A DNA stretch of 64,000 nt from an uncultured Eubacteriales bacterium (GCA_964425745.1 CAYRNW010000004.1:67833-131832), one strand, 5' to 3'. Positions 3,771-47,730 are shown, counted from the first letter of the stretch. Translations and numbers: made by a program. The notes: a model not told the origin generated them from the sequence alone.

Positions 3771-3775
3771 GTTTC

Positions 3776-3851
3776 GGGAGCTTAGCTCAGTTGGTAGAGC
3801 ATCTGCCTTACAAGCAGAGGGTCAGCGGTTCGAGCCCGTTAGCTCCCACCA
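3776..3851 (+). tRNA. tRNA-Val (anticodon TAC)
   Basis: Cloverleaf GGGAGCT...AGCTCCC. Anticodon loop CTTACAA. Matches the canonical Firmicutes tRNA-Val(UAC). 3' CCA encoded. Confidence 0.85.
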
Positions 3852-5589: not shown

Positions 5590-5880
5590 TGGTATAAAAA
5601 AAGCCTTCATCCCCTACGAAGGGACAAAGGCTTAAAAAGCTTCTGCGGTACCACCCAATTTGACAACTGTGACGTTGCCCACTTTATCGCATACCATCAT
5701 ATGCGCTTCCCTAGGTAACGGAGGAAGTTGCCGTCAGTGCCTACTCTCGCAAAGAAATGCTTTACGATTTCTGACTGCCCTCACAAGTCCATTCGACAAA
5801 AGGGTTGTTACCGCACTCCCAGCAACGGCGGCTCTCTGGAAACAATCATTTTTGTGTACTCGTCTTGTTCAATGGTTTGT
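5590..5880 (-). promoter_or_regulatory. T-box riboswitch leader with Trp (UGG) specifier
   Basis: Minus-strand RNA carries the Stem I AGAGAG motif, the specifier context 'GAA UGG A' (UGG at 5789-5791) and the T-box sequence 'AAUUGGGUGGUACCGCAG' (about 5646-5664). A terminator hairpin and U-run follow (about 5596-5640), about 65 nt before the trpB ATG. Confidence 0.8.
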
Positions 5881-5884
5881 GATG

Positions 5885-9925: not shown

Positions 9926-9975
9926 GCAGAATTTATTCCTTTTTATTATACCATTTCGGTGAATGCTGTCAACGC

Positions 9976-10016
9976 AGTTAAAAACAGGCTGCCTCCGTAA
10001 AACGGAAGCAACCTGT
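9976..10016 (-). terminator. probable rho-independent terminator after the carboxypeptidase gene
   Basis: Minus-strand hairpin ACAGGUUGCUUCCG/CGGAGGCAGCCUGU followed by UUUUUAAC. Confidence 0.5.
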
Positions 10017-13481: not shown

Positions 13482-13613
13482 ATGACCTCCATTTTGATGT
13501 AATAGTTGGGGACGGTTCTCTCCCCCTTTTTCAACCACAGAGACAGTTCATTGAAACCACAAGGGGACGGTTCTGTAAAGAACTGTCCCTGTGGTTTCCC
13601 TTGTGTTTCAAGG

Positions 13614-13870
13614 AAGAGAACCTTCCCTAAAGCCAGTCCTTAAACTCAAGAAGACATTTGAGCAAAAGATTCCTGTAGGGCGGCTTCTGACCGAAGGTCG
13701 GCAGAGCCCGAGGGAACTTTTGCGAAACTTACATAATTCTGGTAAAAAACCAAGGGAGAGAACCTTCCCTAAAGCCAGTCCTTAAACTCAAGAAGACATT
13801 TGAGCAAAAGATTCCTGTAGGGCGGCTTCTGACCGAAGGTCGGCAGAGCCCGAGGGAACTTTTGCGAAAC
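13614..13870. repeat. tandem direct repeat, two copies of about 115 bp (period about 142 bp), intergenic
   Basis: Sequence 'gagaaccttccctaaagccagtcc...gagggaacttttgcgaaac' occurs at about 13614-13728 and about 13756-13870, essentially identical. Confidence 0.8.
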
Positions 13871-14539
13871 CTATTGTGCAAAATCGCCGTGGTAGGAGAT
13901 GAGTGAAACATTGAGGACGTTTTCGATTTGAGCGATTCGGTCTGAGATTTGCAAATTTTGATCTTTCAGATACATCTCCAAGGTCATCTCGGTGGTATCC
14001 TTTTTGGTGATTTTGGAGCGGATGATGTAATTCATCTTTCCCAGTACTTCGTTAATTTCCGGCAATGCTTCGTTCTTGAAGCTGATTACCAATAAATACA
14101 CCAGTTTTCGAGGTTTCAACTTGGTCAGAAGCCAAAACGCCAATCCAACCATGAGGTTCCCGAAGAGCACCACCCAATAAATGCGAGCCCCCACGCCTAT
14201 CCCGGCTGCGACCGCCCAGAACAAGAAGATAAGATCAATCGGGTCTTTGATCGCGGTACGGAACCGAACAATCGACAACGCACCGACCATACCAAGGGAC
14301 AAGATGATGTTGGAAGAGATGGTCGCTACAATCATGGCCGAAATAATGGTCATCATCGCCACCGACACATTGAAGTTATGGCTGTAGAGCACGCCTCTGT
14401 AACAGGTGCGGTAAATCATATAGATAAACATCGCCACTGCCAAGGACATGGCCATAACAATGAGGACCCCTACCAAAGAGAGATCTGTGGCCGAACCACT
14501 CAAGAATGCATTTTTGAAAATGTCTTGAAATGTTGTCAT
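13871..14539 (-). CDS. DUF4956 multi-pass membrane protein
   Basis: Hydrophobic N-terminal two-thirds and a soluble C-terminus. Start at MTTFQDIF (RBS TAGGAGA), immediately after the VTC stop. Confidence 0.55.
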   Translation of the reverse strand: MTTFQDIFKNAFLSGSATDLSLVGVLIVMAMSLAVAMFIYMIYRTCYRGVLYSHNFNVSVAMMTIISAMIVATISSNIILSLGMVGALSIVRFRTAIKDPIDLIFLFWAVAAGIGVGARIYWVVLFGNLMVGLAFWLLTKLKPRKLVYLLVISFKNEALPEINEVLGKMNYIIRSKITKKDTTEMTLEMYLKDQNLQISDRIAQIENVLNVSLISYHGDFAQ

Positions 14540-15279
14540 AATGCTGATTCTCCTAATGCATGATATTGCATTGCCGGATTGCGCTGAAATTGAGCGTTCC
14601 GACAATAGATGTACTTGGATACTGCTTCACGGCGATGAACGGGAATTTGAACCGCTGCATGGATATAGGCGGGCAAATAATCATCGTATTTGACTTCCAA
14701 AACCAAGGTATTGGGTTCTAAAACATTGATCAAAGTCACATTTCGGTCAAAAATATTGGATGAATCGATTCCGGCTTGCAAATTCTGATCAAAGGTAATG
14801 CGGACATTCCCTTCCTCCATAACATACACTTCACGAACATAATCGACAATCACTGCCGGGGCTAGCAATTTGGTTCGCATATCCCAAAACATATCTTTGG
14901 CCATGTCGGAATTCTTTTCTAGCAAAAACTCTAAATTCTCTTTACGGATTAACCAAAAAAACTCCTCTTTACTGAGCGTAATCGATTTCTTACTGATAAA
15001 GTCTCCAAATTTCTCTTTGCGCTCCAACTTGATGTTATCGTCACTCAAGTTATAAATGCGCACCCGATATTTTTGTCTGAACTGTACTCCGGAAAGTTTT
15101 TCGAAATAGGCGGTATGATAGATATCGTCAAAATAAAGGCTGCGAATATGATACCCTTCCTCCCCGCTATTTTCATCGGGTTGCATCATGGTACTCAAGC
15201 GTGCTTTGAGGGCTGCAAATTCCTGCTCGTGAATGATGTACTTGAACTCGTGGCGCAGGGTGTTATTGAGATATTTCAT
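14536..15279 (-). CDS. VTC-domain (polyphosphate-polymerase-like, CYTH-related) protein
   Basis: About 247 aa starting at MKYLNN (RBS GGAGGGTGGG). The 'HEFKYII' N-terminus is typical of bacterial VTC domains. Confidence 0.6.
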   Translation of the reverse strand: MKYLNNTLRHEFKYIIHEQEFAALKARLSTMMQPDENSGEEGYHIRSLYFDDIYHTAYFEKLSGVQFRQKYRVRIYNLSDDNIKLERKEKFGDFISKKSITLSKEEFFWLIRKENLEFLLEKNSDMAKDMFWDMRTKLLAPAVIVDYVREVYVMEEGNVRITFDQNLQAGIDSSNIFDRNVTLINVLEPNTLVLEVKYDDYLPAYIHAAVQIPVHRREAVSKYIYCRNAQFQRNPAMQYHALGESAL

Positions 15280-16991
15280 TCTCCCACCCTCCGTTCCATG
15301 ACCACACAACCATAATAGGTATCGCCTTTGGAATCTTCTGCGACATTGCTGCTGGTTTGTCGTTGCCCATTCTGGTCTGTCGCCACAATGCGCACAAAGG
15401 TGGTCACCGAAGGCAAGCTCTCAACGAAGATCTGCCCGTCCTGAGTGGGCGCACTGGCGAACAGAATCACTTGGAAATCTGCCGATGAAGAAACCTCAAG
15501 ATGATATTGAGTCACGCGCCCGCTTTGGGCATTATCGGTCAAATAGGTAACGGAGGCACCTTCCCCTACCCGCTCCACTTTAGTAATCGTGGGAGGTGTG
15601 GGCAACTGGGCATTTGCAAGAAAGGCCTGGTAATTATATGCTACAATTTCCGGAATACTGGCAATGTACGGTTCAACATAGGTCGCAGCCCGAGGTAAGA
15701 GCCCGATTTCGGGAACACTGTAGAGAAACTTCAAAATACTCTTCTGATACGTCAATGTCTGCTGTCCAATCCATTCTGCAGAGAATACTTGATACACCTC
15801 TTCCACTTTACTGCGCAGCTTTTCCAAGTTTCCCGGCACATTTAAGTAGCGTCGATAGAGCAAATTATTATACAAAAATCCGGCGCCTTCAAAGGAAGAG
15901 GCGATTTTCTGATCATCTTTTCCCTCCAAATGATACAAAGCGTCTTCAAAAGAGGATGGCATCAGGTACCAAGTCAGTGAGTTCTGCGGTGAATACAAAA
16001 GGTACTCTTCTTCAAAGGCATTGTAATTGGAGAACAAGATATTGACCGCTGCAAACGTCAACAAGTTTTCTTCGTTAAAATACTTCCCCACCAGTTCTTC
16101 CATGGCTACAGATTCATCTTGTAACAAATCCAACATATGCAGCAATTTTTCATGGGTATCGGCATTACGAATATTCAAAACCTCTTCGAAATCGTCGCTA
16201 TTATAGGTGGAGTCGGTCTTCTCTTTTAAGGACTCCGGCTCTCTTGCGAACGTGAAATCCTCGGCACGGTATAAACTACCGTTGACATCTAAGCCATGCG
16301 CAGTCAGATATGCGGTGTTCGGTTGTTCAAGGTAGGTGTAGATTCCCATGTCTTGATATGCAGCAAGATTTTCCGAAGTCGTATCCTGTACAAACAAGCG
16401 CACAAACCCCGTCCGTAAAGACCCAATGTCTTCTAATTCTTCCAGCAAATCAAAGCCCAGCTTTTGCTTCATCCGAGATAAATCATTGCGATTCTTGAGT
16501 AAATTGATCGTCTTCATATCATTCCAGGTTCCGGCTCGATCATAAAGCTTGATCTGATACGAACGCAAGCGAATCTTTTCGGTATTGCCTTTGATGGTGA
16601 TTTTACCGTTAGCATCGGTCTCGCCAAAGCCAAAAAGTGATGCTCCAACCGATGAGGTTTCGCTACCTTCACTCATAATCACGTTGCAGAAGGGTTCTTC
16701 GCCTTCCACTAATTCGCTGTCGGTATAGTTGTTCAGATCAGAAAACGTATATTCCTTACTGAGATCACGATCAACACCCGTTTGAACGATGAGATACAAA
16801 TGCCGAATGCTGCCATCTTCATCTTTGTCATAAATACTCTTCTCTTCACTAAATGGTCTACCGTTGAGCACACTTGCCTCAATATCCCATGTTTCTTGAT
16901 CATAATAATAGGATTCGTCGTAGACATACGGGGTATTGCATCCGCTCAAGAGCAGAAGCACAAGCAAGAGCAAAAACAAACGTCGCTTCAT
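15276..16991 (-). CDS. CotH-like kinase family lipoprotein (putative), with a C-terminal FN3-like region
   Basis: Lipobox 'LLSGC'. Paralogous to the 17011-18771 product (shared block 'R(T/S)xFxRxxxxDxT...YxxxGxYTxxEQPN...HGLDxNGxLY'). The CotH call is inferred from the conserved CotH/VTC/DUF4956 neighbourhood. Confidence 0.45.
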   Translation of the reverse strand: MKRRLFLLLLVLLLLSGCNTPYVYDESYYYDQETWDIEASVLNGRPFSEEKSIYDKDEDGSIRHLYLIVQTGVDRDLSKEYTFSDLNNYTDSELVEGEEPFCNVIMSEGSETSSVGASLFGFGETDANGKITIKGNTEKIRLRSYQIKLYDRAGTWNDMKTINLLKNRNDLSRMKQKLGFDLLEELEDIGSLRTGFVRLFVQDTTSENLAAYQDMGIYTYLEQPNTAYLTAHGLDVNGSLYRAEDFTFAREPESLKEKTDSTYNSDDFEEVLNIRNADTHEKLLHMLDLLQDESVAMEELVGKYFNEENLLTFAAVNILFSNYNAFEEEYLLYSPQNSLTWYLMPSSFEDALYHLEGKDDQKIASSFEGAGFLYNNLLYRRYLNVPGNLEKLRSKVEEVYQVFSAEWIGQQTLTYQKSILKFLYSVPEIGLLPRAATYVEPYIASIPEIVAYNYQAFLANAQLPTPPTITKVERVGEGASVTYLTDNAQSGRVTQYHLEVSSSADFQVILFASAPTQDGQIFVESLPSVTTFVRIVATDQNGQRQTSSNVAEDSKGDTYYGCVVMERRVGE

Positions 16992-17010
16992 AGACTCCCT
17001 CCTCTCATGT

Positions 17011-18771
17011 TTACTTTAGGATGATCATATCTCCATCTTGAATTTGAATAGCTCGTAATCCATATTCAATGTAGGAGTTTCCTGCTGCGTCCGTCACAAC
17101 ATAGCGATCGTAACCTACCTGACGATTTCCCTTATTGTCGAATACGACGGCTGACCAGAAATAGATCCCGTTCGGTAGTTGCACAGAAGGTGTGATATTG
17201 GTCAAGCTGGTTTCTTCGCGGTATATGCTGCTGCCTGTCCGGTTTCTATAATCAGTGAAAATTGAGAATTCATAGTAGACCCGGTCGGCCTGCAAATCGG
17301 TTGACGGAGACCAATTGAAGGTGATTTTCTGATCCTCTGCTTGTTTTGGAGAACCTAAAAAAATGGGCATGGGATTCTCTTTTGTATTGTAATACAAGTT
17401 ATAACAAAAGGTTATGCGGTTTTGAAAGTCGGCAATATTGACTCGAATTTCATCCGCATCGGTGTCATCGAAGACCTCATCCAACGAGTTTCGAAATCCT
17501 GAGAGAATGGTATTGGTATAATTTTGGGTCAAGCTTTGCCAATCCTGATTCATCATGATAGCATAAAGTTCCTCGATTCGGTCATCGAGCATTTCCACAT
17601 GCGCCGGATCGCTAAAAAAGCGTTTATGTAAGGTTGTTCCCCAATAGCGAGCTAAGCCGAAGAAGTCTTTCATGCCCCTTGACATAAAGCTTTCCTCACT
17701 CAACATGCATTTATCATAGTCCCAGGGGAGAAAATACCATTTATCGCTATAGGAAGGAGAATACAATAAATAATTTCGTGACATGGTATCATAGTTATTC
17801 AAGAGCAGGTTCATGGCAACCCAGGTCAAATAATTATCGACATCAAAGTATTTCTGAAAGACCGAAGGGAAGTTGCTGCTTGGATTATTGATTTCATCCA
17901 ACATCGTTGCTAATTTGGCATTGTCGGGGTTTTCGCGAATCTTCAGCAACAAAGAAAACATGTCTTTGTCGAATTCCGGATCGTCTACAGGGACTATGTA
18001 GGGAGATTCAAAGAATTCGAAATCGGTAGGTTTATAAAGTGTTCCATTGGGATCTAAGCCATGTTCGTTCAAAAAGGTTTTGTTGGGTTGCTCAACGTGG
18101 GTATAGAGCCCATAATTCACATAACTTGCCTGAGTTTGGGTCCCGTCTTTGATATGTACCCTAAAAAACGAGGTGCGCAAGGAGACCATATCCGGGAAAT
18201 TTGCCATTTGATCAAAACTGAATTTCTGGGCCAAGCGACTCGAATCCGAGGTGTGTTTATTTAAGTTCAAAACTTGCTGCCCATGGAAGGTTCCCTGTCC
18301 GTCGTAGACTTTGATTTTGTACGACTTTTGTTCCTCTAACCTTGCACTCTGCCCTCTCAGTGAGAAGGTAGAATTGACCTGTATGTCTTCGGTATTGAAA
18401 ATCGTCTTCCCGGTATCGGGGTCTACAATATAAACCAAGGCATCCAATTGTGGGTCGGGAGCTAACCCCATAATTTCATTCATCGAAGTTAGATCGTAAA
18501 TACCGCCGGTTTCAGAATCCGTACCCTGATAAACTGTAACATAGAGATCCCAAATCTTATAGCGATCTTCTTCTTTATAAAGGGCAGGATTATCTTGAAT
18601 TCCCAGGGCATCCAATTGAGAAAAGTCGATTTCCGGGGGGATAAACACTTCTTCGGGTGGTTGATACCACCAAAGATAGTACGCAGAGACCGCTACCCCG
18701 CTCAGCAAAACCAAGGCCATGAGCCCATTACGAATTTGCCGTTTGACGTTCTGATTGAGATAAATTTTCAT
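17011..18771 (-). CDS. CotH-like kinase family protein (putative), type-II membrane anchored
   Basis: 586 aa, paralog of 15276-16991. The 5' end overlaps the pelG 3' end by about 44 nt. Confidence 0.45.
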   Translation of the reverse strand: MKIYLNQNVKRQIRNGLMALVLLSGVAVSAYYLWWYQPPEEVFIPPEIDFSQLDALGIQDNPALYKEEDRYKIWDLYVTVYQGTDSETGGIYDLTSMNEIMGLAPDPQLDALVYIVDPDTGKTIFNTEDIQVNSTFSLRGQSARLEEQKSYKIKVYDGQGTFHGQQVLNLNKHTSDSSRLAQKFSFDQMANFPDMVSLRTSFFRVHIKDGTQTQASYVNYGLYTHVEQPNKTFLNEHGLDPNGTLYKPTDFEFFESPYIVPVDDPEFDKDMFSLLLKIRENPDNAKLATMLDEINNPSSNFPSVFQKYFDVDNYLTWVAMNLLLNNYDTMSRNYLLYSPSYSDKWYFLPWDYDKCMLSEESFMSRGMKDFFGLARYWGTTLHKRFFSDPAHVEMLDDRIEELYAIMMNQDWQSLTQNYTNTILSGFRNSLDEVFDDTDADEIRVNIADFQNRITFCYNLYYNTKENPMPIFLGSPKQAEDQKITFNWSPSTDLQADRVYYEFSIFTDYRNRTGSSIYREETSLTNITPSVQLPNGIYFWSAVVFDNKGNRQVGYDRYVVTDAAGNSYIEYGLRAIQIQDGDMIILK

Positions 18772-20227
18772 GATCTTGGTTCACTTCCTCTTGACCGTTT
18801 AAGCGGTTAATCCAGGATTCTAAATTCTTGCCTTTGTTTTCTTCTTCGGGCACTTGGGAACAGAAAATAATATAATCGACCGAATTCAGGGTTTTACGCA
18901 AATATAATAATGCTGCAATCAAAGTAACGATCGAGGCAAAAACAATGCCCAGCCCATAGAATTCCGCCCCCAGCTGCACTGTCAGCAACGTAAAAATCGT
19001 ATTTAAGAGTAAAAACAAGGTTGTAATGTGTAAACAGTCGACGTAATTTTCAAAATATTGCATCAGGGTGCAGGCCAAAAACATAAAATAGGTGAAGAGA
19101 AATCCTGCTACCATATTGGGGAATACTTCAATCACGGTAGAAGAGAGACCCAGCAAAGGTAAAACCGCAATTCCCACCACAACACATATCAGCGAGATTA
19201 AGATCTGTAATTCAGCAACAAAGAAAAATTCTTGCCACATTTGGCGCTGCATCAACCGCTTTGCTCGCTCAATCTCAGCCCCGGTTTGGGTGTTGATTGC
19301 ACGGAGATAATCGCGAAAATAATCATAAAACGAAGTTTCCATGCGGACCACAAACAAAACAATAGCCGGTAAGATACTTAAAACGCCCAATGCCGTTGCC
19401 ATGTCGAATTCATCGGAAAAGATAAAGACGGAGATTGAATTTTGGGTTTTGTAATAGCCCCAAAAGATAAAGTTTTGCACATAGATCCCCAAGGTGTAAA
19501 AGGTATTAAACCAAAAAAGCGAAGGATACTTGCCCATGTAGAGCAAAAAATCAAAATAACGAGTCGAAGGAACTTGAAAATACTTCTTGACTCCCATTAA
19601 GATTCCGCCCGCAACCACAGTCATTCCAAAGGCAAATGCTCCTACTAAGGCTGTCGTCATCGAGAATTGATGATCCCAAAACCGTAAGGTTGCATAGGAG
19701 CCCAGAAAGGCAATGATCATGCCGACGATAAAACTTCTAGAAATCTGTGCGTAGTCTTTCAAAGCGGAGACATAGACCATGAGAATAAAGATAATGCCGA
19801 CCATCATATAAAGTAGATACGCAAAAATCGACAAAGCTAAGCTTAATTGTGCTTTCCACAATAGAACGACCGCAGGAATTGAAGCCAAAGAACAATAGAT
19901 TGCCAACGCTCCATAAACCGAGGCGAAAATATCCTCCGTCTTATCTCCCCACATCATATCGGCGATATACCGTGAAATTATGATGCACAAGCCACTGGTA
20001 AAAATCAGAGGGAAAACAAAGGAGTATAAGATAATCGAAGAATACAGGCGTTGATCATTCAAAGGCATATCGGAATTCAGCAAAAACAGTTTTACTGAAA
20101 TCAGAGCCCCGATTACAATCAGCAAATGCCCAATGGTGGAAAAGACCGAGTACAAAACAGCACTGAATTTTGCCGTCAGCGATTGACGTCGAAAAAGTTT
20201 TTTTAGTTCAAAGCCAATTCCTGCCAT
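18728..20227 (-). CDS. pelG: PelG polysaccharide-exporter-like membrane protein
   Basis: Starts 'MAGIGFELKKLF', the conserved PelG N-terminus. About 12 TM segments. Confidence 0.75.
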   Translation of the reverse strand: MAGIGFELKKLFRRQSLTAKFSAVLYSVFSTIGHLLIVIGALISVKLFLLNSDMPLNDQRLYSSIILYSFVFPLIFTSGLCIIISRYIADMMWGDKTEDIFASVYGALAIYCSLASIPAVVLLWKAQLSLALSIFAYLLYMMVGIIFILMVYVSALKDYAQISRSFIVGMIIAFLGSYATLRFWDHQFSMTTALVGAFAFGMTVVAGGILMGVKKYFQVPSTRYFDFLLYMGKYPSLFWFNTFYTLGIYVQNFIFWGYYKTQNSISVFIFSDEFDMATALGVLSILPAIVLFVVRMETSFYDYFRDYLRAINTQTGAEIERAKRLMQRQMWQEFFFVAELQILISLICVVVGIAVLPLLGLSSTVIEVFPNMVAGFLFTYFMFLACTLMQYFENYVDCLHITTLFLLLNTIFTLLTVQLGAEFYGLGIVFASIVTLIAALLYLRKTLNSVDYIIFCSQVPEEENKGKNLESWINRLNGQEEVNQDHENLSQSERQTANS

Positions 20228-20266
20228 TTCAGTCCTCCCCTTTCCCTTTGATTTTTTAGATCATCA

Positions 20267-21718
20267 TTAGATTTTCTCGTCTATAGGCTTTTTCTCCGGA
20301 TCTAACTCGTTATACAAGCGACGATATGCATCAATGAATCGTCCCTCAGAAAAGTAGCGAATCATGCGCTCGCGCCCTGCTTTACCGTATTGCTTTTGCA
20401 AATCCGGCGTTGTGATAATCTTAATGATATGTTCGGCAATTTGCTCGTAGTCCATGATTGGTACCAATAGACCTGCCGGTCCTAAATCATCCCCTTGTTT
20501 GCCTAAGAACAGCTCTTTACAACTGCCGACATTGGTCGAAACACAAGCAACGCCTGCCGCCATTGCTTCCATGAGTGCTAACGGTTGCCCCTCGCTAATC
20601 GAGGTCAAGACCATGACATCCATTCGTCCCACATACTCTTTGACATTGACCCGACCGGTAAATTGTAAATCGCCAATCCCCAGCTCTTTCCACAAAGCAA
20701 TACACTCCTGATAATACTCCGGGGCCTCGTCGGTAGGACCGATTAAATAAAAATAAGCATTGGGAACGCGTCGTTTCACAATATCGAAAGCATACAACAT
20801 GGTTTTGATGTCTTTGATTGGAGTCACCCGAATCACAGCTCCGACATTAAGTCTTCCTGCTTCTTCGGCTGTTTTGCCGGGTAAATTGCTAAACCCTTCT
20901 ACATTGACCCCATTGGAGATGACTTCGCAGTATAAAGGATCGGCACCCAATTCAATTTGGATGCGACGGTTGGTCTCAAACAAGGCTACAATACGATCGG
21001 CTGCCCGATATGCTCCTACGGAAAGGCTTTTGAAATAGTCAATCCAGAGCCGTTTGAAGCTTTTTTGCACCCAAGCCGCTACAATGATCTCTTCCTCTCG
21101 CTCCCTCGAATAGATTCCATGTTCTGTGATCAGCAGACTTCCTCCATATAAATGTTTTCCCATCGCTCCGGCAATCCCTGCATAGCCCGTGGACACCGTT
21201 TGATACAAATCGGCTTTGGGAGGTGGATTATTTAAAATGTGAAACAAAGTCATATACATAGACCGCATAGTCCAGACAAAGTCTACGAACCGTGTATCCC
21301 CGTATTGCTTGTTATACACCTCTTTGACAATATCATAGAAATCACTCCCTAAGAGAAAATTGCGTATGACCCGGTCTCCACGCTGAAAGAAGTCGAAAAT
21401 CATATTCCATTGATCCAGATTCGAAAGCATTAATCGGCGAATCTCATCGATCTCCCATTTGGCTGTCACGGTTGGCTTAGGAATTAAGCCTGCATTTTTT
21501 TCGCTCTTCAAGCTAATATCATTTAAAAATACTTCTTGGGCTCCTGTAACATTAGCCGGTAAGGTATATAAGAACTGTCCTTGTTTTTCCGAATCCGGCA
21601 TGATTGTATACAAAACGTATTCATGCTCCGGAAAGTTCCGAATCAATTGTTGTACCCAGGAGGACACCCCACCAACGATGTACGGATAACAGCCCTCCGC
21701 AATAAGGCATATTTTCAT
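20267..21718 (-). CDS. pelF: PelF GT4 glycosyltransferase
   Basis: 'EGCYPYIVGGVSSW' N-terminus and a GT-B/GT4 C-domain. Confidence 0.75.
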   Translation of the reverse strand: MKICLIAEGCYPYIVGGVSSWVQQLIRNFPEHEYVLYTIMPDSEKQGQFLYTLPANVTGAQEVFLNDISLKSEKNAGLIPKPTVTAKWEIDEIRRLMLSNLDQWNMIFDFFQRGDRVIRNFLLGSDFYDIVKEVYNKQYGDTRFVDFVWTMRSMYMTLFHILNNPPPKADLYQTVSTGYAGIAGAMGKHLYGGSLLITEHGIYSREREEEIIVAAWVQKSFKRLWIDYFKSLSVGAYRAADRIVALFETNRRIQIELGADPLYCEVISNGVNVEGFSNLPGKTAEEAGRLNVGAVIRVTPIKDIKTMLYAFDIVKRRVPNAYFYLIGPTDEAPEYYQECIALWKELGIGDLQFTGRVNVKEYVGRMDVMVLTSISEGQPLALMEAMAAGVACVSTNVGSCKELFLGKQGDDLGPAGLLVPIMDYEQIAEHIIKIITTPDLQKQYGKAGRERMIRYFSEGRFIDAYRRLYNELDPEKKPIDEKI

Positions 21719-21735
21719 AGGGAGCCCTCCTTTCT

Positions 21736-23535
21736 CTATTTTTGTAGAATGACTTCTTCACTCTGAAGGGTTATCACATAATAATTGCCGGTGTATTTTT
21801 CAACGGTATAGCCTTCCCCCGGCAGAATCGGCCATTCGCTTCTCAGCACAAACTGCATTCCTAAATATCCCTTAGCTACCTTAATCGCAATACTATCGGC
21901 CGTTTCAGAATAAGAAAACTCCGCATTTTGACTTTGCTCTGTAATCATTGCAGCTTGGCGAATCGTCGTATGCTCTACACCCGGGTAGCTTTGGATTAAT
22001 TCGGTGGTGGCAATGAACTCCTCGGTCCATTGGGGAAATGTCATCCGACTGTTTTCCAATACCTGATTGACATTCAGTGTCATGGAAGCCATGCCTTGCG
22101 CTAATAATGTATTACGAACCGTCCAGCGCATTCCGTCAAAACACGAGACCAGGGTATAATAGTAGAGATTTTCTATAACCGGATCTCTCTCCATGTCTCG
22201 AATCAACTGATCCGGGTACAAACGGCGACAGGTCAGAGCTAGGACGGAAAGATTGGGATCTAATTCCGGTAATTTTGCTAAAACTTCCGGTGCAATTCTC
22301 CCTTGCGGGGGCATATAAGTCGTAATAGTATATTTCGGGAAAATCCGTTCCAGCGGACTTTTGGCTGCTTGCAACGATTCCTCGATACTAGCAAAGGAAG
22401 ACCAAGGGATAAACCAGCCCATCTCTTGCAGTTGACCCTCTAGACCGAAGGGTCTCATACTAAAGCCATGAAAGGCAATCTCTCCGCCGTTTTGCAAAAC
22501 TTCTGCTGCATAGAGTTTAAAATCATTGATTGGAAATTGGTTCGACTGAAAATCGGTATCGGTATTCTCGTCATACGATAACACATAGGATAACACCGGT
22601 TTGACGTGAAAGTCTCGCATCAATCGGGTTATCAGCGGCCAGATCCGGCTTTGCATCATTTTATCGTAACTTAATTTTTCAGTCTCCATCATCGCTGAAT
22701 CCTCCACCTGATAAGGCGAAGCAAACTCCTCTAACAACAGTGTTGCTGTTCCGGAAATCGGATACAGAAACGAAGCGAGGTTCTTCTGTTTTAAAGTACG
22801 ATACAACACTTCCATGATCAGACCACGACTTTGATACGAGCTGAGAAAGTCACAATTGCTGATGTATAACATACCTTTTTCAAGATTTCGAGACCAAAAC
22901 AAGGGGTTCTCATCTTCATCGTGGAGATAAACCAAACAGTCTGGACGCAATCGCACCTGATACCGCAAGGGGATCGGTGCTTCAAAGCTGTAAACCTCCC
23001 CTTTCGGTCCTATGAGACCTTCGGCATCGATCAACTGGTTACATGAAATTTTGGTGGCTTTCTCAATGAGACCAAAGCTTGTAGATATTGAAATGTACGA
23101 ATCTGAGTTTTCCGGCACAATTGGGAAATAAGCCGTGGCGCCTTCTTCCACACAATTGAAAACCTCCTGCAGTAATGGGGCTCGGTCATAGCGTGCTAGA
23201 AGGATGATAATCAAGGGGTATTCGCTCAAAGAGACCTCTTCTTCCACCGAAATCAGGTCGTATTGCAATTTCGTTTTCTTTAACAACGACTGGAAGTTTT
23301 CTAAAACGTAATCTCGATCTGCGGCCAAAGGATCATACAGCAAAGCGATTTTATCGAGTTTATGTGTGTTCTCAACACTTACACCCGAACCCATGGCTTG
23401 AAAAACCGGGTACTCCGGTGCCAGGTAACGTTCGTTGTTATAAAAAATATCCATTTTGGAAATTTGCAGGGCAATGATTACGATAAGAAACAACCCCAGC
23501 ATTAACAAGGTTTTTTGAGAACTGTTTTCTTTCAT
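21736..23535 (-). CDS. PelA-like polysaccharide deacetylase/DUF2194-type protein (putative)
   Basis: 599 aa with an N-terminal TM anchor. The call rests on position between pelE and pelF, as in Gram-positive pel operons. The family is not confirmed by motif. Confidence 0.4.
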   Translation of the reverse strand: MKENSSQKTLLMLGLFLIVIIALQISKMDIFYNNERYLAPEYPVFQAMGSGVSVENTHKLDKIALLYDPLAADRDYVLENFQSLLKKTKLQYDLISVEEEVSLSEYPLIIILLARYDRAPLLQEVFNCVEEGATAYFPIVPENSDSYISISTSFGLIEKATKISCNQLIDAEGLIGPKGEVYSFEAPIPLRYQVRLRPDCLVYLHDEDENPLFWSRNLEKGMLYISNCDFLSSYQSRGLIMEVLYRTLKQKNLASFLYPISGTATLLLEEFASPYQVEDSAMMETEKLSYDKMMQSRIWPLITRLMRDFHVKPVLSYVLSYDENTDTDFQSNQFPINDFKLYAAEVLQNGGEIAFHGFSMRPFGLEGQLQEMGWFIPWSSFASIEESLQAAKSPLERIFPKYTITTYMPPQGRIAPEVLAKLPELDPNLSVLALTCRRLYPDQLIRDMERDPVIENLYYYTLVSCFDGMRWTVRNTLLAQGMASMTLNVNQVLENSRMTFPQWTEEFIATTELIQSYPGVEHTTIRQAAMITEQSQNAEFSYSETADSIAIKVAKGYLGMQFVLRSEWPILPGEGYTVEKYTGNYYVITLQSEEVILQK

Positions 23536-24461
23536 ACTTTCGCCCCCTCCTTGCGCCCGATTTGGGGATCGATGAAATAGCGAAAGGACGCCAATCTCTC
23601 TGGAGATAATTGAACTCGACTGGTGCGAATGCGTTGAATAATCTGCTGAAACAATTCTCGCTCTCCAAGAATGTAATAAAGCTCCAAAGCCGCAAAATAA
23701 ACGATTTCGTGATCAAACGCAGTAAGACAATCTGCCATAAAGGCCTTCGCTTCTTGAGCTCTTCCCAAATCTTGCAAGTAAAGCGCAGTATCTTTATAGA
23801 AAGCCATATCCATACCCTCTGCTACACTGATTCTGTCTTCAAAAAGCTTCAAAATTAGATCACAAAATTGGCGCTGATATTTGCGACGGTTTGCCGGATC
23901 TAAAATACCACTTTCAATGTAGTCGTGTAGGGTCTTTGCATAAGAGAGTTTATTTTGTAAAACGCTCTCATCCTCCTGTACCAGTTTACTCAGTTCAATC
24001 ACGGAGTTGTCGAACTTTCGTTTGATTTCCGTAAGAGCGGAAGAAGCATAATGGGAAACTTCGGTATCGGGATCGGACAACGCTTTTTTTAGTTCTTTGA
24101 CATATTGCAAAGAGTCGCTGCTGAAAATTCTCATAACAGCATCTCGGCGAGTTGCTACATCTTCGAAAAGCAAAATATCGGTTAAGGACGCTGTATGCAG
24201 GTCACGTTGCCGATCTGCCTGAAACAAGGGGGGACCCTCTTCTTTCGAAAACTCTTTATACTGTTCAACAGCTGCCTGATTTTCTTGTGTTTTTCTCTGC
24301 ATGAGCCAAACGAAGAAGCCACCGATCAAAGGTAAAAAGAAGGCGATGAACCAATTCATCAAGAAAAATCGTTGCTTTCTCGTAATCATAATCACCAACA
24401 GAACTACGATGAGTACAACATAATAGAGGAGCAAAACCCATTGAAACGCCATTTCCAGCAT
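23532..24461 (-). CDS. PelE-like membrane/TPR-like protein (putative)
   Basis: 309 aa with two N-terminal TM helices and a helical repeat C-terminus. Translationally coupled (ATGA) to the downstream gene. Confidence 0.4.
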   Translation of the reverse strand: MLEMAFQWVLLLYYVVLIVVLLVIMITRKQRFFLMNWFIAFFLPLIGGFFVWLMQRKTQENQAAVEQYKEFSKEEGPPLFQADRQRDLHTASLTDILLFEDVATRRDAVMRIFSSDSLQYVKELKKALSDPDTEVSHYASSALTEIKRKFDNSVIELSKLVQEDESVLQNKLSYAKTLHDYIESGILDPANRRKYQRQFCDLILKLFEDRISVAEGMDMAFYKDTALYLQDLGRAQEAKAFMADCLTAFDHEIVYFAALELYYILGERELFQQIIQRIRTSRVQLSPERLASFRYFIDPQIGRKEGAKV

Positions 24462-24484
24462 GGTGTGTTCCTCCTAACTCCTCT

Positions 24485-26614
24485 TTACTTGTCTAAAATC
24501 TGCGACTCAATTCCGGCTTTTTGTAAACGCTCCACAACAATGGTGGCTTCGCTGGGAGAGGTTGTCAACAAGAGCGCTCCAACTCCACCCGTACTAAGCC
24601 GTCCAATTTCATCGGTGTCTCGTAGGAAGCGCCGAGTCTTAGCTGCAGTTTCTACCATCTCTTGATCAGTTGCCAGGATTTGCAATACGGTATATTCAAT
24701 ACCACTATTCTCCCAGCCCTTTTTTGCGAAGCTAATGACCTTCTGAAAATTCTCTGCTTTCATGATATCGCTCGAACCCTCAAAAGTATATTGATCCATT
24801 AAGGTTTCATATATGTGAGCGTTCCTGTAAGCATCATCCAACAAATCTTTGGTGATATGTAAAACGTTCATGTAATAGAGCGTTAATTTATCGAACGCCA
24901 TATTCTCTATCATCACCAAGACCGTGACATGATTGTTAACCGATATGGGGAGAATCACCGAGGGCATATCCGGATTCAAATATTGGTTTGTATAGAACCG
25001 GTTGTTTTGAACAATATCAAGAAGCACAGAATTTTCGGTGATGTTATACGATTTGTGGAATTTGGCGGGCTGCTCGCCGATGTAGAGTAGCCGGCGCATA
25101 AAATTACTGCCAGGCTGTCGTACAAAGAGTGAGATGTTGGGTTCGTCGGTGAGATCACGAATGGAGGTTAGCGTTCCCCAGAAAATGTCCTGTTGTGAGA
25201 GCGAGTTTAGGCTTTTAATCGAAGCATATAATTTCCCTAACCCGGATTCATACTTCAAAATTCGAGTTTCTTGCTCCATTTTAATCTGTCCTAAGTCACT
25301 ATTGATTTGGCGCATAATCTCCAATTCTTTACTCAAATCCTCGATTTGTAATTGCCTCTCGTGAATCGCAAAATTCTTCCGTTCCAATACATAGCCAATG
25401 CTCATCGCAATCACTAGTGCTTGTACCATCTGCAACAAGACATTGACATTGGAAAAAGTTGCAACAATACTATAGCCGTCCAAAAGTGAATTGATCACGT
25501 AATAGCCACTGACTAAAATAGCGGAAAAAATTCCTTGATTGATGCCAAAAACAATGGAAATGAAGATCAGGTAGATTGTGAGGTACTGAGTAATGAAGGT
25601 ATCGGAGTATCCGGTTTGCCAATACGTAAGATACGCCAATGCCGAAAACAAGGCAAGGTTTTCAATCGTTCGCCAAAATCCTGTATGGGAAGCTCTTTCT
25701 CGCTTCACAATTGCTTTTTTAACCCGTCTCGAGTCTTGATGCCACTGTACCGTTGATTCAATCATGACAGCAACATTTCGCCGCAAAACCAGACCCAATT
25801 CCATGGCGGCTTTGAGTCCATAATGAGTTGGTTCTTCTCCGCTTTTATTTCTGCCTATGAGGACTTTGCTAGGCCGAGCAAAAATCAACCCTTTGCTGTG
25901 CAGCTCTCGATATATCTCATTGGCCAACTCTTCCCCCGAAATCGGATTTGCGGGAACGATGTTGTATACGCCCTCGATACTGTCATTCAAACTACGAACA
26001 ATGGCTTCTACAGCATCTCCGGCTGCAACCAAATAGTGAAATCCATGAAGTCCCACTTGAATTTTGCCTTCTTGCAGGGCTTGCTCCACCATCTCAAATG
26101 CGACCGTCGTCGAATCCAACGTTTCATACTCTCCGGTAACCATGGGGAGCCGCAAAAAGATATTGAAAAATCGATCCTTGGGTCTGAAGCTCAAAAATGC
26201 CTGCTCACACAAGACATGCGTTCTGGCATCAATACTTAAAGGCGCTACCTCATCGGTTTCGGCTTTCAATCCTTCACCATAAACAGAAACATTTGAAAGA
26301 TAAATTATTTTCGCAGTTTCATGTAAAACCGAAAGTTCTGCAAGTGCTGTGACTTCAGTAACTTTTTTTATAGAATCCTCGATGGTCAGTACTTCTTTGC
26401 AATCGGCATACAGAATAACCTCAGGCTTTTCCGCAGCGAAAATATCTTTCAAGCTCCTGAGGTCACTGCTCACATATTTAGAATGCGGCACGTTGGCCGA
26501 GTGCTCCGGCTGCTTGTTTTGATAAACACCTACCACTCGGTAATGATCACGGTAGAAACGGATAATGCTATGGATCCCTAAAAAACGCTCGGCTCCAATG
26601 ACCATAATTTTCAT
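24485..26614 (-). CDS. pelD: PelD-like c-di-GMP receptor with N-terminal NAD-dependent epimerase domain (Gram-positive type)
   Basis: N-terminal Rossmann fold 'MKIMVIGAERFLG', central TM block, C-terminal GAF/degenerate-GGDEF region with a candidate RxxD ('RDTD'). Confidence 0.55.
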   Translation of the reverse strand: MKIMVIGAERFLGIHSIIRFYRDHYRVVGVYQNKQPEHSANVPHSKYVSSDLRSLKDIFAAEKPEVILYADCKEVLTIEDSIKKVTEVTALAELSVLHETAKIIYLSNVSVYGEGLKAETDEVAPLSIDARTHVLCEQAFLSFRPKDRFFNIFLRLPMVTGEYETLDSTTVAFEMVEQALQEGKIQVGLHGFHYLVAAGDAVEAIVRSLNDSIEGVYNIVPANPISGEELANEIYRELHSKGLIFARPSKVLIGRNKSGEEPTHYGLKAAMELGLVLRRNVAVMIESTVQWHQDSRRVKKAIVKRERASHTGFWRTIENLALFSALAYLTYWQTGYSDTFITQYLTIYLIFISIVFGINQGIFSAILVSGYYVINSLLDGYSIVATFSNVNVLLQMVQALVIAMSIGYVLERKNFAIHERQLQIEDLSKELEIMRQINSDLGQIKMEQETRILKYESGLGKLYASIKSLNSLSQQDIFWGTLTSIRDLTDEPNISLFVRQPGSNFMRRLLYIGEQPAKFHKSYNITENSVLLDIVQNNRFYTNQYLNPDMPSVILPISVNNHVTVLVMIENMAFDKLTLYYMNVLHITKDLLDDAYRNAHIYETLMDQYTFEGSSDIMKAENFQKVISFAKKGWENSGIEYTVLQILATDQEMVETAAKTRRFLRDTDEIGRLSTGGVGALLLTTSPSEATIVVERLQKAGIESQILDK

Positions 26615-28776
26615 GGCTGCTCACCTGCCTGCCTCTGCACATTCAGCGTGTCCAAACTCTGGGGCATTGCTAAATGGTAGCCCTGACCCAAGGAAATGCC
26701 AATCTGATACAAACTCTGCACCTGTTCTTCTGTTTCAATCCCTTCTGCTACACAGAGGATGTTTAAATTCTCGCAATAATCGCGAATGCTCTTGATCATA
26801 TAAAAAGACTTTTCATCGTTGAGAATATTTGACATCAGCTCAATGGGTATTTTAAGCCCGTCAAATTTTACTTGAGCCAACATGATATTATTGGAAAATC
26901 CGGTTCCATAATCATCGGCAATGATTTTGATTCCAGAACTCTTCAATTGCTCCGCTTTCACCATAACTTCTTCGGGCTTATTATAAATATGCTCAGTCAA
27001 CTCAATGTACAATTGTTTTCCTTGACGAGCCAAGACATTGGCCAACGCTTTCATTTCATCGAGGATCGGCGTGTTGCCTAAAATATTCACCGAAATATCG
27101 GTCGGAATTTCTCCGTTCAGCGCCAATGCATGGATTTTTTTGAAGATCATGCGGTCCAATTCCACATCCAGCCCGGCAACCACACAGTCTCCGATAAACT
27201 CACCGGTATTCGAATAGACTTCATTATGGACGCGGAGTAGCGCTTCTAAGAAAAGTATTTCTTTAGAAGCAATCTTCAAGATCGGTTGAAAGACGAGTGA
27301 AAAATCTCCGCGACTTATGATCCCCGGTAAATAACGCAACCTCAACAAGCGCTGATTATACTGCTCGTATTGCGAAGGAACAAACAAATAGACATCACTG
27401 TTTTCCTGATTATCGGTCCGATATTTGCAAAAATTGAGCTTTTTGAGAACTTCGTCAACATCACTGAGCGTTTGCACCCGTAAACTTTCCGTATACAAGG
27501 CCCCGATTTTTGCTTTCATAGCAAATTGCTTCTCTTGTACGACATAGACATCACTAAAAACTTCTACCAAACGACGTAATGCTTTATGTTCTTGGCCCTC
27601 TTTGGGATTTTCTTGTAGGGTAAACAAGAGTTCTCCGGTTTTGACGGAATAAATTTGTGCTTGTGGAAATTCTTTTCGCAACACATTGGCAATTGTTTTA
27701 AAACAAGCCAACTCAAACTCGGTTTCATAAACCGTGCTTTTCTGAAAATCCAAATTCAAGCGCAATGAAGCAAAGAGCATGAACTCCGTGGAGGCTTTAC
27801 AGTAGTCTAGAATGCCTTCTTTCATTACTGGATAGCCGGGAAATCCGGTCACATAATCGCGTGCTTTCGCCCGATATAGCACCTCGGTACGAGAAGTTTG
27901 CTTGGTAATGTCACGAATCACCCCTAAGTAGCCCCCCAGCAATCTGGGATACGCAAAATATTCTATAAAAATCTCCTGGCCGGTTGCCGGTGTGCTAAAA
28001 AGAGTCCGCTCCACTTTTCGATTCGTAACCCGAACATGGGCTTCCGTAGAATCTCCAAGCAACTGTTGAAACTCCTCTAACGGCATGATCAACCGCGGGA
28101 GCTCCAAATCTTCGGCACATTTCCGGGAAAAATGCACTTGCTTTTTCTGTTCGTTCACCCAAAAAACGTAGAGGTTATCATATTTGGTAAGCAACTCCAG
28201 AAAATATCGGCTAAGATAAACGGACCCAAGCAGGTTCTGGGGAAAAAATGCTGCTATGGTTAAAGTTAAAATCAGGCCTAATGTGGCCACAAAAACTGCC
28301 AGGGTCAAAAGTACTTCGGCATCGTAGCGACCCAAATACCCATTGATATGAATTTCAGAAAAAACCACCGGTACAACGCTAAAAAGCAGGAGACCTGCCA
28401 TGATTTCCTTTTTCAATTTGCTGAATAAGAAGCCAGCAGCGACGGCGAGTAAGGCCACGGCATACCACAGGGAAAACGGAGAAAAGTAAACGCTGAGTAG
28501 ATAAAGCGGAGCAAAGCTAATCAAGCTTCGCCAAGAAAATTTAAGTGTGAGAAAAAATAACAGCAGGAATTTTAGATTCAAAACTGCTTGATCCTGCACG
28601 TAAAAGACGTGCGAGTTGAGCAAAAAACAAGCTCCACCCAAAAAGAAGCCAACAATCCAATCGCGGCTGCTAGGCGAGTAATCAAAATAGTTATGGATCA
28701 TTGTAGCAAGAACAAAAAGTGCGACAAAAATCCCAAATCCGGAAAGAATGTAACCCATTAGATCAATTATTGGCAT
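26611..28776 (-). CDS. membrane-anchored EAL-domain c-di-GMP phosphodiesterase with degenerate GGDEF (CdgF-like)
   Basis: Multi-TM N-terminus. C-terminal EAL motifs 'EALLRV', 'DDYGTGFSN', 'KFDGLKI'. Overlaps pelD by 4 nt. Confidence 0.7.
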   Translation of the reverse strand: MPIIDLMGYILSGFGIFVALFVLATMIHNYFDYSPSSRDWIVGFFLGGACFLLNSHVFYVQDQAVLNLKFLLLFFLTLKFSWRSLISFAPLYLLSVYFSPFSLWYAVALLAVAAGFLFSKLKKEIMAGLLLFSVVPVVFSEIHINGYLGRYDAEVLLTLAVFVATLGLILTLTIAAFFPQNLLGSVYLSRYFLELLTKYDNLYVFWVNEQKKQVHFSRKCAEDLELPRLIMPLEEFQQLLGDSTEAHVRVTNRKVERTLFSTPATGQEIFIEYFAYPRLLGGYLGVIRDITKQTSRTEVLYRAKARDYVTGFPGYPVMKEGILDYCKASTEFMLFASLRLNLDFQKSTVYETEFELACFKTIANVLRKEFPQAQIYSVKTGELLFTLQENPKEGQEHKALRRLVEVFSDVYVVQEKQFAMKAKIGALYTESLRVQTLSDVDEVLKKLNFCKYRTDNQENSDVYLFVPSQYEQYNQRLLRLRYLPGIISRGDFSLVFQPILKIASKEILFLEALLRVHNEVYSNTGEFIGDCVVAGLDVELDRMIFKKIHALALNGEIPTDISVNILGNTPILDEMKALANVLARQGKQLYIELTEHIYNKPEEVMVKAEQLKSSGIKIIADDYGTGFSNNIMLAQVKFDGLKIPIELMSNILNDEKSFYMIKSIRDYCENLNILCVAEGIETEEQVQSLYQIGISLGQGYHLAMPQSLDTLNVQRQAGEQP

Positions 28777-28906
28777 GATGTCCTCCTCCCTGCACTGGTA
28801 GGGGATGTTTGTTGGTTTCTCTATGATTCTGTTATTCCTATTCTACTATAGTTTCTCCAAACATACAATCAAAGACCTGCAAAACTCCGTTTTAAATTTC
28901 CTCACC

Positions 28907-28935
28907 TTGACGAGAACGCCACTTCGCGTTACAAT
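28907..28935 (+). promoter_or_regulatory. sigmaA-like promoter (TTGACG, 17 nt, TACAAT) for the 28983 gene
   Basis: Read directly from the sequence. Confidence 0.4.
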
Positions 28936-28982
28936 TATTCTGTAGAATTTGCTTCTAATTTACAGAAAGAAGGAAGTACACG

Positions 28983-29738
28983 ATGCATGAATTACGTAGA
29001 AAATTCCATGTCACGGCTTTAATTCCTTTCGGCGTTGCTGCATCTTGTTGTCTGGGAATTTTGACACACAGCACGATGCAAAACGGGGATTTCATGGCGG
29101 CTATTTTCAAAGCCTTTACCATTCAAAGCAACATCTGGGCTGGCAGTATTGCCCTCCTTGGTTTGGGTTTTTCTTGGTTTAGCAAGAACAAATCCGGACC
29201 TGCATGGCTGGAACCCATTCGTTTTATGTTTACCACCTCAATCACGCTGACCTGGCTGGTATTTGCGATTCTTTTGACACCAACCATGAGCTTGAGTTAC
29301 CTGCTTTCGCAGTCGAATTTCTATTTGCATAGCTTAACCCCCATTTTGAGCGTGATCGATTACATCCGTCAACCTAACGATAGGGTTCCCTTCAAAAACC
29401 TTTGGACCGTCATGATCATGCCGATTTTATATAGTCTCTACTTCTTTGTGGAATACGCCTATACCGGAGAAATGCCGGTGCGCTATTTCTTTATGGACTA
29501 TCGAAAACACGGCTGGTTCGGTATCAGTCGCAAGGGCTTGGGCGTTGTTTATTGGATGATCCTTTTACTGACTACGCTAGTCGGTATTGGCCGTAGCTTG
29601 TTGGCCTTGCGCGAATGGGGTAAAAAAGATCCTCTGAAAACCTCACTATGGACAGCTGGCATCATGCTCTTGATTTCTGCGGTCATGGTCTTGGTTCGCT
29701 CAAGAATGCCCTCCACAGAAAAGGACTCTTCTAATTAG
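28983..29738 (+). CDS. hypothetical integral membrane protein
   Basis: 251 aa with about 6 TM helices. Confidence 0.45.
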   Translation: MHELRRKFHVTALIPFGVAASCCLGILTHSTMQNGDFMAAIFKAFTIQSNIWAGSIALLGLGFSWFSKNKSGPAWLEPIRFMFTTSITLTWLVFAILLTPTMSLSYLLSQSNFYLHSLTPILSVIDYIRQPNDRVPFKNLWTVMIMPILYSLYFFVEYAYTGEMPVRYFFMDYRKHGWFGISRKGLGVVYWMILLLTTLVGIGRSLLALREWGKKDPLKTSLWTAGIMLLISAVMVLVRSRMPSTEKDSSN

Positions 29739-40083: not shown

Positions 40084-40102
40084 GGTTTTCTACTCCTTTC
40101 CC

Positions 40103-41269: not shown

Positions 41270-41288
41270 AGGTTCTGACCTCCCTTCC

Positions 41289-43859: not shown

Positions 43860-43901
43860 CTTACACCTCAATTTAAGACACATTAAAAACATTAATTGGA
43901 T

Positions 43902-47711: not shown

Positions 47712-47730
47712 GGTTTTCTACTCCTTTCCC

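Follow-up and report, generated by a model that had tools for sequence, protein, structure and literature searches.

What kind of polysaccharide would be made by the genes on the minus strand at 18728-28776 of a 64,000-nucleotide (nt) stretch of DNA from an uncultured Eubacteriales bacterium (GCA_964425745.1 CAYRNW010000004.1:67833-131832, hereafter the window), and how would its synthesis be controlled? Pel is among the most widespread biofilm polysaccharides, and the cationic charge arising from its deacetylation by PelA is central to models of extracellular DNA (eDNA) binding and of the matrix. An initial annotation of the window read this interval as a Gram-positive-type Pel operon adjoined by a regulator of cyclic di-GMP (c-di-GMP). 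We find that the locus reaches four genes further and is very probably a ten-gene operon for a Pel-type exopolysaccharide (EPS), of the published type with class III PelD and accessory genes, working by the mechanism proposed below. Its deacetylase homologue, PelA_DA, is by its residues a conserved pseudoenzyme. The genes and flanking elements of the operon are as follows.

28777-28982, minus strand: leader/promoter region, 206-nt intergenic, between the EAL gene and a divergent Pr6Pr-family gene
26611-28776, minus strand: membrane EAL protein, 721 amino acids (aa), with N-terminal multi-pass membrane domain, degenerate GGDEF, and active-type EAL
24485-26614, minus strand: PelD, 709 aa, with degenerate domain of the short-chain dehydrogenase/reductase (SDR) type, transmembrane region, GAF, and degenerate GGDEF with intact I-site
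23532-24461, minus strand: PelE-like protein, 309 aa, with two N-terminal membrane helices and TPR/HEAT-like helical repeats, between pelD and pelA_DA
21736-23535, minus strand: PelA_DA homologue, 599 aa, of the DUF2194 / CE26-CBM114 fold family, with degenerate active site
20267-21718, minus strand: PelF, 483 aa, GT4 glycosyltransferase (polymerase), with NF038011, DUF3492, and Glycos_transf_1
18728-20227, minus strand: PelG, 499 aa, polytopic membrane exporter starting MAGIGFEL, PF16933
17011-18771, minus strand: CotH1, 586 aa, extracytoplasmic membrane-anchored CotH-family kinase, Pfam CotH 166 bits
15276-16991, minus strand: CotH2, 571 aa, CotH-family pseudokinase lipoprotein, Pfam CotH 115 bits, lipobox LLSGC
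14536-15279, minus strand: VTC-domain protein, 247 aa, triphosphate-tunnel polyphosphate polymerase-like, cytoplasmic, Pfam VTC 129 bits
13871-14539, minus strand: DUF4956 membrane protein, 222 aa, encoded by the final gene of the operon, PF16316 34 bits
13753-13770, minus strand: terminator-like hairpin with T-run (consensus scan and sequence), ~100 nt past the last stop codon

The operon extends beyond pelG

The interval 18728-28776 contains six open reading frames (ORFs) on the minus strand, whose ends coincide exactly with the limits set by the initial annotation. Four further minus-strand genes, encoding CotH1, CotH2, the VTC protein, and the DUF4956 protein, lie 3' of pelG with equally tight spacing, down to 13871. 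In gene order, the junctions measure -4, 23, -4, 17, 39, -44, 19, -4, and -4 nt. Given that pelG and cotH1 overlap by 44 nt, that the next junctions are similarly close, and that a 332-nt gap follows DUF4956, the operon consists of ten tightly packed genes at 13871-28776. The single operon described previously therefore stands as to its tight coupling, but it does not end at pelG; the pelG/cotH1 overlap and the four genes after pelG had been overlooked. ATGA overlaps, which had been reported at several junctions, number two within the six-gene interval (EAL/PelD and PelE/PelA_DA), where the other three junctions are gaps of 23, 17, and 39 nt with strong ribosome-binding sites; two further ATGA overlaps, at CotH2/VTC and VTC/DUF4956, are found downstream of that interval. 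A good ribosome-binding site is present at every junction inside 18728-28776, and a strong one, GGGAGGAGGA, precedes the ATG of the EAL gene.

The leader contains one sigma-70-like match (28872-28845), and such matches occur there at chance frequency. No riboswitch, including those of the c-di-GMP type, was found in the leader or elsewhere in the operon using Rfam. Hence, c-di-GMP control of the operon, as originally proposed, is retained at the protein level only, where it would act through the PelD receptor. At the opposite end, the 332-nt gap, with its terminator-like hairpin, separates DUF4956 from an unrelated hutD-like gene.

Both flanks of the operon have further features. A 123-nt element is present in two direct copies (13609-13731 and 13751-13873; 98% identical, 142-nt spacing) directly 3' of the DUF4956 stop codon, which it slightly overlaps. 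The terminator-like hairpin region is found inside each copy, and the element has no further copies in the window and no match in Rfam. Upstream of the operon, the divergent gene at 28983-29738 (plus strand) encodes a Pr6Pr-family membrane protein, and its position is kept in two of the relative loci described below (L005 and L006).

PelF, PelG, and PelD establish a Pel system

PelF scored 367 bits against the NCBIfam equivalog NF038011 (cutoff 100) and 256 bits against DUF3492, and it is 85-97% identical in relatives. PelG matched PF16933 with 368 bits over profile positions 1-452 of 452 and has many hydrophobic segments. Whether these proteins might match a different EPS system had been posed as a check on the initial annotation, and both belong to Pel-specific families. 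Together with the fold of PelD, they bear out a Gram-positive-type Pel locus with PelD, a PelE-like protein, PelA_DA, PelF, and PelG in that order, and ORFs and family scans agree with the minus-strand arrangement in which the EAL gene stands first.

PelD had been described as carrying an N-terminal NAD-epimerase fusion. The N-terminus indeed matched the Epimerase family (PF01370, 48 bits) and aligned to UDP-glucose 4-epimerases. Its motifs are altered, with GAERFLG in place of GxxGxxG, D129 in place of the catalytic Tyr, and H133 in place of the Lys, so that by these substitutions the domain is a degenerate SDR. No Pfam model matched the C-terminus, even at permissive thresholds, and the Howell group also reported no Pfam recognition of the C-terminus of Bacillus cereus PelD. 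A profile of residues 425-709 matched GGDEF domains in the PDB (6khu, E 3e-4; 3ign, E 5e-3), and the profile alignment puts the RxxD of the family in exact register with that of the I-site in the cyclase 3ign. Matches of the full-length profile in the PDB were dominated by SDR enzymes. An AlphaFold (AF2) model of the C-terminus had a predicted local distance difference test (pLDDT) score of 84 and a predicted template modeling (pTM) score of 0.71. Its five best PDB fold matches with Foldseek were all Pseudomonas aeruginosa PelD crystal structures (E 3.5e-9 to 3e-8, ~280 columns), with 4etz, 4eu0, 4dmz, and 4dn0 among the top entries. The GAF/degenerate-GGDEF C-terminus on which the original assignment hinged is therefore present, as both the P. 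aeruginosa PelD fold and the position of RxxD on the I-site indicate.

Three residues of PelD correspond in spacing to R363, D366, and R395 of B. cereus PelD, each of which is needed both to bind c-di-GMP and to form biofilm (PMC7112168). Among 98 representatives of the PelD family, R665 was conserved in 96, D668 in all 98, and R696 in at least 90%. By this correspondence, PelD retains all three c-di-GMP-binding residues and is predicted to bind the ligand. Searching 1.84 billion representative sequences with PelD returned 356 clusters at E < 1e-30, and of the 150 hits listed the majority were full-length SDR-PelD fusions. About a third of the 98 sampled PelD sequences retain the catalytic Tyr and Lys of the SDR. 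This matches the published split between class II, with an active SDR, and class III, in which the SDR is without GxxGxxG and the catalytic Tyr/Lys while the C-terminal GGDEF is retained (PMC7890745). Since its SDR is degenerate and its C-terminal GGDEF retained, the PelD encoded here is class III.

The PelE-like ORF (309 aa) had no significant match in family scans. Its AF2 model is all-helical, with a pLDDT of 75 that rises to ~90 over residues 150-290, and its PDB fold matches are to generic TPR proteins only (E 0.01-0.08). The motif DPDTEVSHYAS is invariant in 20 PelE-like homologues.

Relatives share the gene order and show purifying selection

We compared the window with relative loci designated L005-L008, L010, L011, and L013, in which the visible genes are limited by the extent of each fragment. 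A genome scan yielded three loci, and the nearest genomes are metagenome-assembled genomes (MAGs) labeled uncultured Eubacteriales and Bacillota, with PelD identities of 85%, 61%, and 55%. A repeat search of the protein database, using the alignment of 98 PelD sequences, brought up nothing beyond the 8 close relatives already seen, and scanning metagenome contigs with a narrower alignment returned one close locus. The exact PelD protein also occurs on ENA and Logan metagenome contigs. As far as the fragments reach, gene order is shared with the window in L005, L006, L007, and L010. L011 spans PelE through PelG, and L013 (45% PelD identity) spans EAL through DUF2194 plus a partial next ORF. In L008, at 28% PelE identity, the full set of ten is present, and a GGDEF gene comes next. 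The ratio of nonsynonymous to synonymous substitution rates (dN/dS) was 0.015-0.076 for nine of the ten genes relative to a relative with ~85% aa identity that does not cover DUF4956, these values being approximate with dS near saturation. The nine genes that can be tested against this close relative are intact and under strong purifying selection.

The gene for a predicted phosphodiesterase is coupled to pelD

The first gene of the operon encodes a protein with hydrophobic segments within residues 1-180 and an EAL domain (PF00563, 132 bits). Its N-terminal membrane domain matched no Pfam family, permissive thresholds included. Alignment with DosP and TBD1265 showed complete EAL motifs (EALLR, SVN, ELTE, DDYGTG, LKI, EGIE, and QGY). 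At the position of the GGDEF signature, the protein has KTGEL, without an RxxD upstream, and Pfam detected no GGDEF domain; across the window, L005, L006, L008, and L013 the signature reads KTGEL, KSGEL, or LFGEY. Because the EAL motifs are intact, the GGDEF is degenerate, and both states are kept in these four relatives, the protein is predicted to be a membrane sensor phosphodiesterase that degrades c-di-GMP.

In B. cereus, the cyclase CdgF switches Pel on and the phosphodiesterase CdgE switches it off (PMC7112168). The protein had been labeled CdgF-like in the initial annotation. That label does not fit a degenerate GGDEF with a complete EAL, given that CdgF is a diguanylate cyclase, and functionally the protein would resemble CdgE. 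The associated claim that a gene for a c-di-GMP enzyme adjoins the Pel genes was correct, and this gene is translationally coupled to pelD through ATGA. Such coupling hints that the protein restrains the PelD receptor locally.

Two observations concern other c-di-GMP genes and the EAL orthologues. A PAS-PAS-GGDEF-EAL gene with a detectable GGDEF is located 6 kb upstream of the operon (34846-36963, minus strand), and its product might supply or consume the c-di-GMP to which PelD would respond. In L007, a Bacillota MAG with a complete chromosome, the EAL orthologue (7838-9995) is in two pieces in different frames that overlap at residues 437-459, possibly owing to a frameshift, pseudogenization, or misassembly.

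PelA_DA has lost its active site

PelA_DA matched DUF2194 (PF09960, 147 bits; Pfam) and the structure of B. cereus PelA_DA (9zau, E 3.6e-21), and it has a single N-terminal membrane helix at residues 5-33. Its initial description as a PelA-like deacetylase thus holds for the DUF2194/PelA_DA family, but not for the catalytic residues, which are nearly all absent. A 2026 study of the B. cereus protein defined D262 and D263 (MT1), H350 and H354 (MT2), P405, R458, H488, and D491, with H350, H354, and H488 mutants being inactive and catalysis being required for Pel production (PMC13254593). At D262, D263, H350, H354, R458, H488, and D491, the residues of the window protein are E, E, H, M, L, N, and Q, respectively. 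The motifs compare as follows.

MT1: DDFPSP in B. cereus, EEFASP in the window
MT2: HGYNHQP in B. cereus, HGFSMRP in the window
R458 region: FPRIT in B. cereus, YTLVS in the window
MT5: VHPDD in B. cereus, LNVNQ in the window

Identical or similar losses were observed in L005, L006, L007, L011, and L013, and a differing pattern of loss in L008. The PelA_DA of Cetobacterium, although much more remote, keeps every catalytic residue in these columns of the alignment, as does that of B. cereus. Searching plasmids with PelA_DA (tblastn) found Fusobacterial loci only, not of the cotH type, which served as the catalytically intact outgroup. Given that its dN/dS is 0.057 despite loss of the active site, PelA_DA is, by these sequence criteria, a pseudoenzyme that has been conserved, and its gene is not in decay. 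We found no mention of this loss in the cited Pel literature. The Pel of Streptococcus intermedius appears to be mostly N-acetylgalactosamine (GalNAc) with little deacetylation, and is possibly neutral (PMC12345266), a composition that fits a dead PelA_DA in the window.

The outgroup locus itself has the pel genes in another order. On the Fusobacterial megaplasmid p1 of Cetobacterium somerae (L012, NZ_CP143320.1 265-274 kb), pelA_H is followed by a GAF-only PelD, DUF2194, a hypothetical gene, pelF, and an unusually long pelG.

The accessory genes encode a putative kinase/pseudokinase pair and a polyphosphate polymerase-like protein

CotH1 matched B. cereus CotH (5jd9) with E 3e-12, and a membrane helix spans residues 16-35 at its N-terminus. 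The roles of CotH kinase residues have been assigned in Bacillus subtilis, including the catalytic Asp (D228), an Asn, and the metal-binding Asp of WDYD (D251) (PMC7821199), and we mapped this numbering onto CotH1 and CotH2 by motif. In CotH1, NYD, RNY, and PWDYD are intact and conserved in the window, L006, L007, and L008. In CotH2, the positions of the catalytic Asp, the Asn, and WDYD are replaced (NYN, EEY, and PSSFED), with similar losses in L006-L008 and a dN/dS of 0.059. Since the motifs are kept in one paralogue and replaced in the other, and both states are conserved in L006-L008, the two look like an extracytoplasmic kinase with its pseudokinase.

The VTC protein matched yeast Vtc4 (3g3q) weakly (E 0.002), and equivalents of the Vtc4 residues K200, R264, and R266, taken from PMC9911596, are conserved. 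The DUF4956 protein has hydrophobic segments within residues 11-141 and weak similarity to MgtC/SapB (E 0.002). In streptococci and clostridia, cotH, a polyphosphate polymerase gene, DUF4956, and DUF4832 are contiguous with pel, next to pelD of the SDR-bearing classes II-IV (Whitfield et al. 2020, PMC7112168). Homologues of cotH and DUF4956 in S. intermedius play a part in Pel-dependent aggregation (PMC12345266).

Proposed mechanism and alternatives

We propose that PelF polymerizes a GalNAc-rich chain at the cytoplasmic face and that PelG exports it, with the PelE-like protein acting as a scaffold of the membrane complex. Binding of c-di-GMP to the I-site of the degenerate GGDEF of PelD (R665, D668, and R696) would switch the complex on. 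The EAL phosphodiesterase, with a dead GGDEF and a live EAL, would lower local c-di-GMP and keep synthesis off, until its N-terminal membrane domain receives a signal or a cyclase from another locus gains the upper hand. PelA_DA would be tethered on the outer side of the membrane as a partner, probably one with affinity for carbohydrate and PelG. As this partner is without a deacetylase active site, we infer that the product is probably a largely acetylated, neutral polymer. The active-looking CotH kinase, the CotH pseudokinase lipoprotein, and the VTC/DUF4956 pair would form an accessory, phosphate-related module.

Several observations weigh against this interpretation. Matches to promoters and terminators in consensus scans were at chance level. 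The PelE-like protein fits PelE by position and architecture only. Among the scanned ORFs of at least 150 aa in the window, none encodes PelA_H, a DUF4832, GH166, or other hydrolase, or galE, leaving precursor supply and polymer turnover without a local explanation; DUF4832 is also absent after DUF4956 in L008. Finally, a dead PelA_DA sits awkwardly with a simple model in which the system is the same as in B. cereus. One alternative is that PelA_DA is still an active de-N-acetylase, using a non-canonical site in which Glu-Glu stands for Asp-Asp and one His is left, and that the product is the ordinary cationic, partly deacetylated Pel of B. cereus. Deacetylase activity was essential for Pel output in the two systems studied (PMC13254593), the fold family is retained at the scores given above, the acidic pair is conservatively replaced, most lineages retain the first MT2 His and the PP of MT3, and the gene is under strong purifying selection. 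However, of the seven catalytic residues named above, five have been replaced jointly, with the second metal-binding His becoming Met or Ile, the base-activating Arg becoming Leu, Ile, or Val, the catalytic acid His becoming Asn or Asp, and the activating Asp becoming Gln. This joint replacement holds in lineages 36-87% identical to the window PelA_DA, and L008 (28%) loses a different set, whereas the more distant Fusobacterial homologue keeps every one of these residues in the same columns. The H350, H354, and H488 mutants of the B. cereus enzyme are inactive as well, and we consider continued deacetylation unlikely.

The EAL protein invites a similar question, namely whether, instead of a phosphodiesterase, it is a positive regulator like CdgF or a c-di-GMP receptor without catalytic activity. 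Many GGDEF-EAL proteins serve as receptors or as trigger enzymes, the comparison with the B. cereus circuit made in the initial annotation points the same way, and a sensor domain without a known family leaves room for other outputs. Yet KTGEL without an upstream RxxD or a Pfam GGDEF makes cyclase activity very unlikely, and the presence of all catalytic and metal-binding EAL motifs in the window and four relatives speaks against a dead receptor, such that either role seems quite improbable. A third alternative is that the locus belongs to a different EPS system (Eps, Wzx/Wzy, or PNAG-like) that merely resembles Pel, or that it is decaying and non-functional. Degeneracy does recur among its components (the SDR domain, the GGDEF domains, PelA_DA, and CotH2), and neither PelD nor PelE has a Pel-specific Pfam match. 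Against this, PelF scores more than threefold above its equivalog cutoff, PelG matches its Pfam model end to end, P. aeruginosa PelD ranks first in the whole PDB for the PelD fold, nine of ten genes are intact under strong purifying selection, and gene order is conserved over deep divergence. Family scores, fold, selection, and conserved order thus largely refute both versions, and we regard them as highly improbable.

Implications for Pel chemistry

The Pel locus type itself and its accessory set of cotH, polyphosphate polymerase, and DUF4956 are already known. Our analysis makes a modest addition, namely a conserved arrangement of ten genes with that of a predicted phosphodiesterase in front, a PelA_DA that is without an active site, and a putative CotH kinase/pseudokinase pair. 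The clade appears to keep pelA_DA under strong selection after loss of its active site, always beside the putative kinase/pseudokinase pair and the polyphosphate-polymerase module. A more far-reaching and doubtful reading is that deacetylation was lost in the clostridial class III branch, and perhaps in streptococcal class IV, with PelA_DA becoming a carbohydrate-binding, PelG-coupled pseudoenzyme and a phosphate module replacing the charge of the amines. Under this reading, the CotH kinase with its pseudokinase partner, the cytoplasmic VTC polymerase, and DUF4956 as a possible export channel, by analogy to yeast VTC, could add phosphate to the polymer or to a protein of the matrix, or could supply extracellular polyphosphate as an ionic cross-linker. 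If true, the chemistry of such Pel matrices would differ from the cationic Pel-eDNA model. Loss of the active site offers a testable, sequence-level explanation for the mostly-GalNAc Pel of S. intermedius, and the clade opens a testable route to what the cotH/VTC/DUF4956 accessory genes do.

Other features of the window

Beyond the operon, two paralogous sets at 39358-44993 and 46980-52578 each comprise an ABC ATPase, proteins of ~390-420 aa and ~360 aa, and an FtsX-type permease of ~860 aa. An IS21 IstB-like gene (45824-46696) lies between them, and a third FtsX/MacB permease is encoded at 56932-59610. GC content falls to 0.34-0.35 at 52-56 kb. A T-box leader (5617-5881, minus strand) is upstream of a gene for a PLP-dependent enzyme (4310-5530). 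Two tRNA genes (3696-3848, plus strand) come after genes for DnaB and an FAD protein, and two AAA_14/DUF4143 ATPase genes are found at 37074-38375 and 60395-61582.

Comparison with known systems

The S. intermedius cluster consists of pelDEA_DAFG followed by SIR_1594 (CotH), SIR_1593 (polyphosphate polymerase), SIR_1592 (DUF4956/MgtC-like), and SIR_1591 (hydrolase) (PMC12345266). The window shares with this streptococcal/clostridial group the core order, a degenerate SDR on PelD, the contiguous cotH/VTC/DUF4956 genes after pelG, and an extracytoplasmic CotH. It differs from S. intermedius in that its PelD keeps the GGDEF and I-site, making it class III rather than class IV, and in having an upstream-coupled phosphodiesterase gene and two CotH paralogues, one kinase-like and one a pseudokinase lipoprotein, while it is without the DUF4832 glycoside hydrolase gene.

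With B. cereus ATCC 10987 the window has in common the order of pelD, pelA_DA, pelF, and pelG, with a PelE-like gene between pelD and pelA_DA, and the c-di-GMP receptor residues (PMC7112168), as well as a PelA_DA of the three-domain family with an N-terminal membrane helix (9zau, PMC13254593). The PelD of B. cereus, however, is class I and has no SDR, unlike the class III protein here, and its PelA_DA is an active Zn-dependent deacetylase required for Pel, whereas the window protein is without those residues. Next to the B. cereus operon lie pelA_H and galE, and cotH/VTC/DUF4956 are absent, the reverse of the window. The c-di-GMP enzymes of B. cereus are encoded elsewhere, in contrast to the predicted phosphodiesterase that is the first gene of the operon here.

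Likeness to P. aeruginosa pelABCDEFG lies in the GAF-GGDEF fold of PelD, the top structural match, in the PelF and PelG families, and in the PelE-like protein as a putative membrane TPR protein. Relative to that system, the window is without PelB and PelC, as in a monoderm, its PelA is reduced to a degenerate DUF2194 form, and it adds an SDR domain on PelD and the accessory genes.

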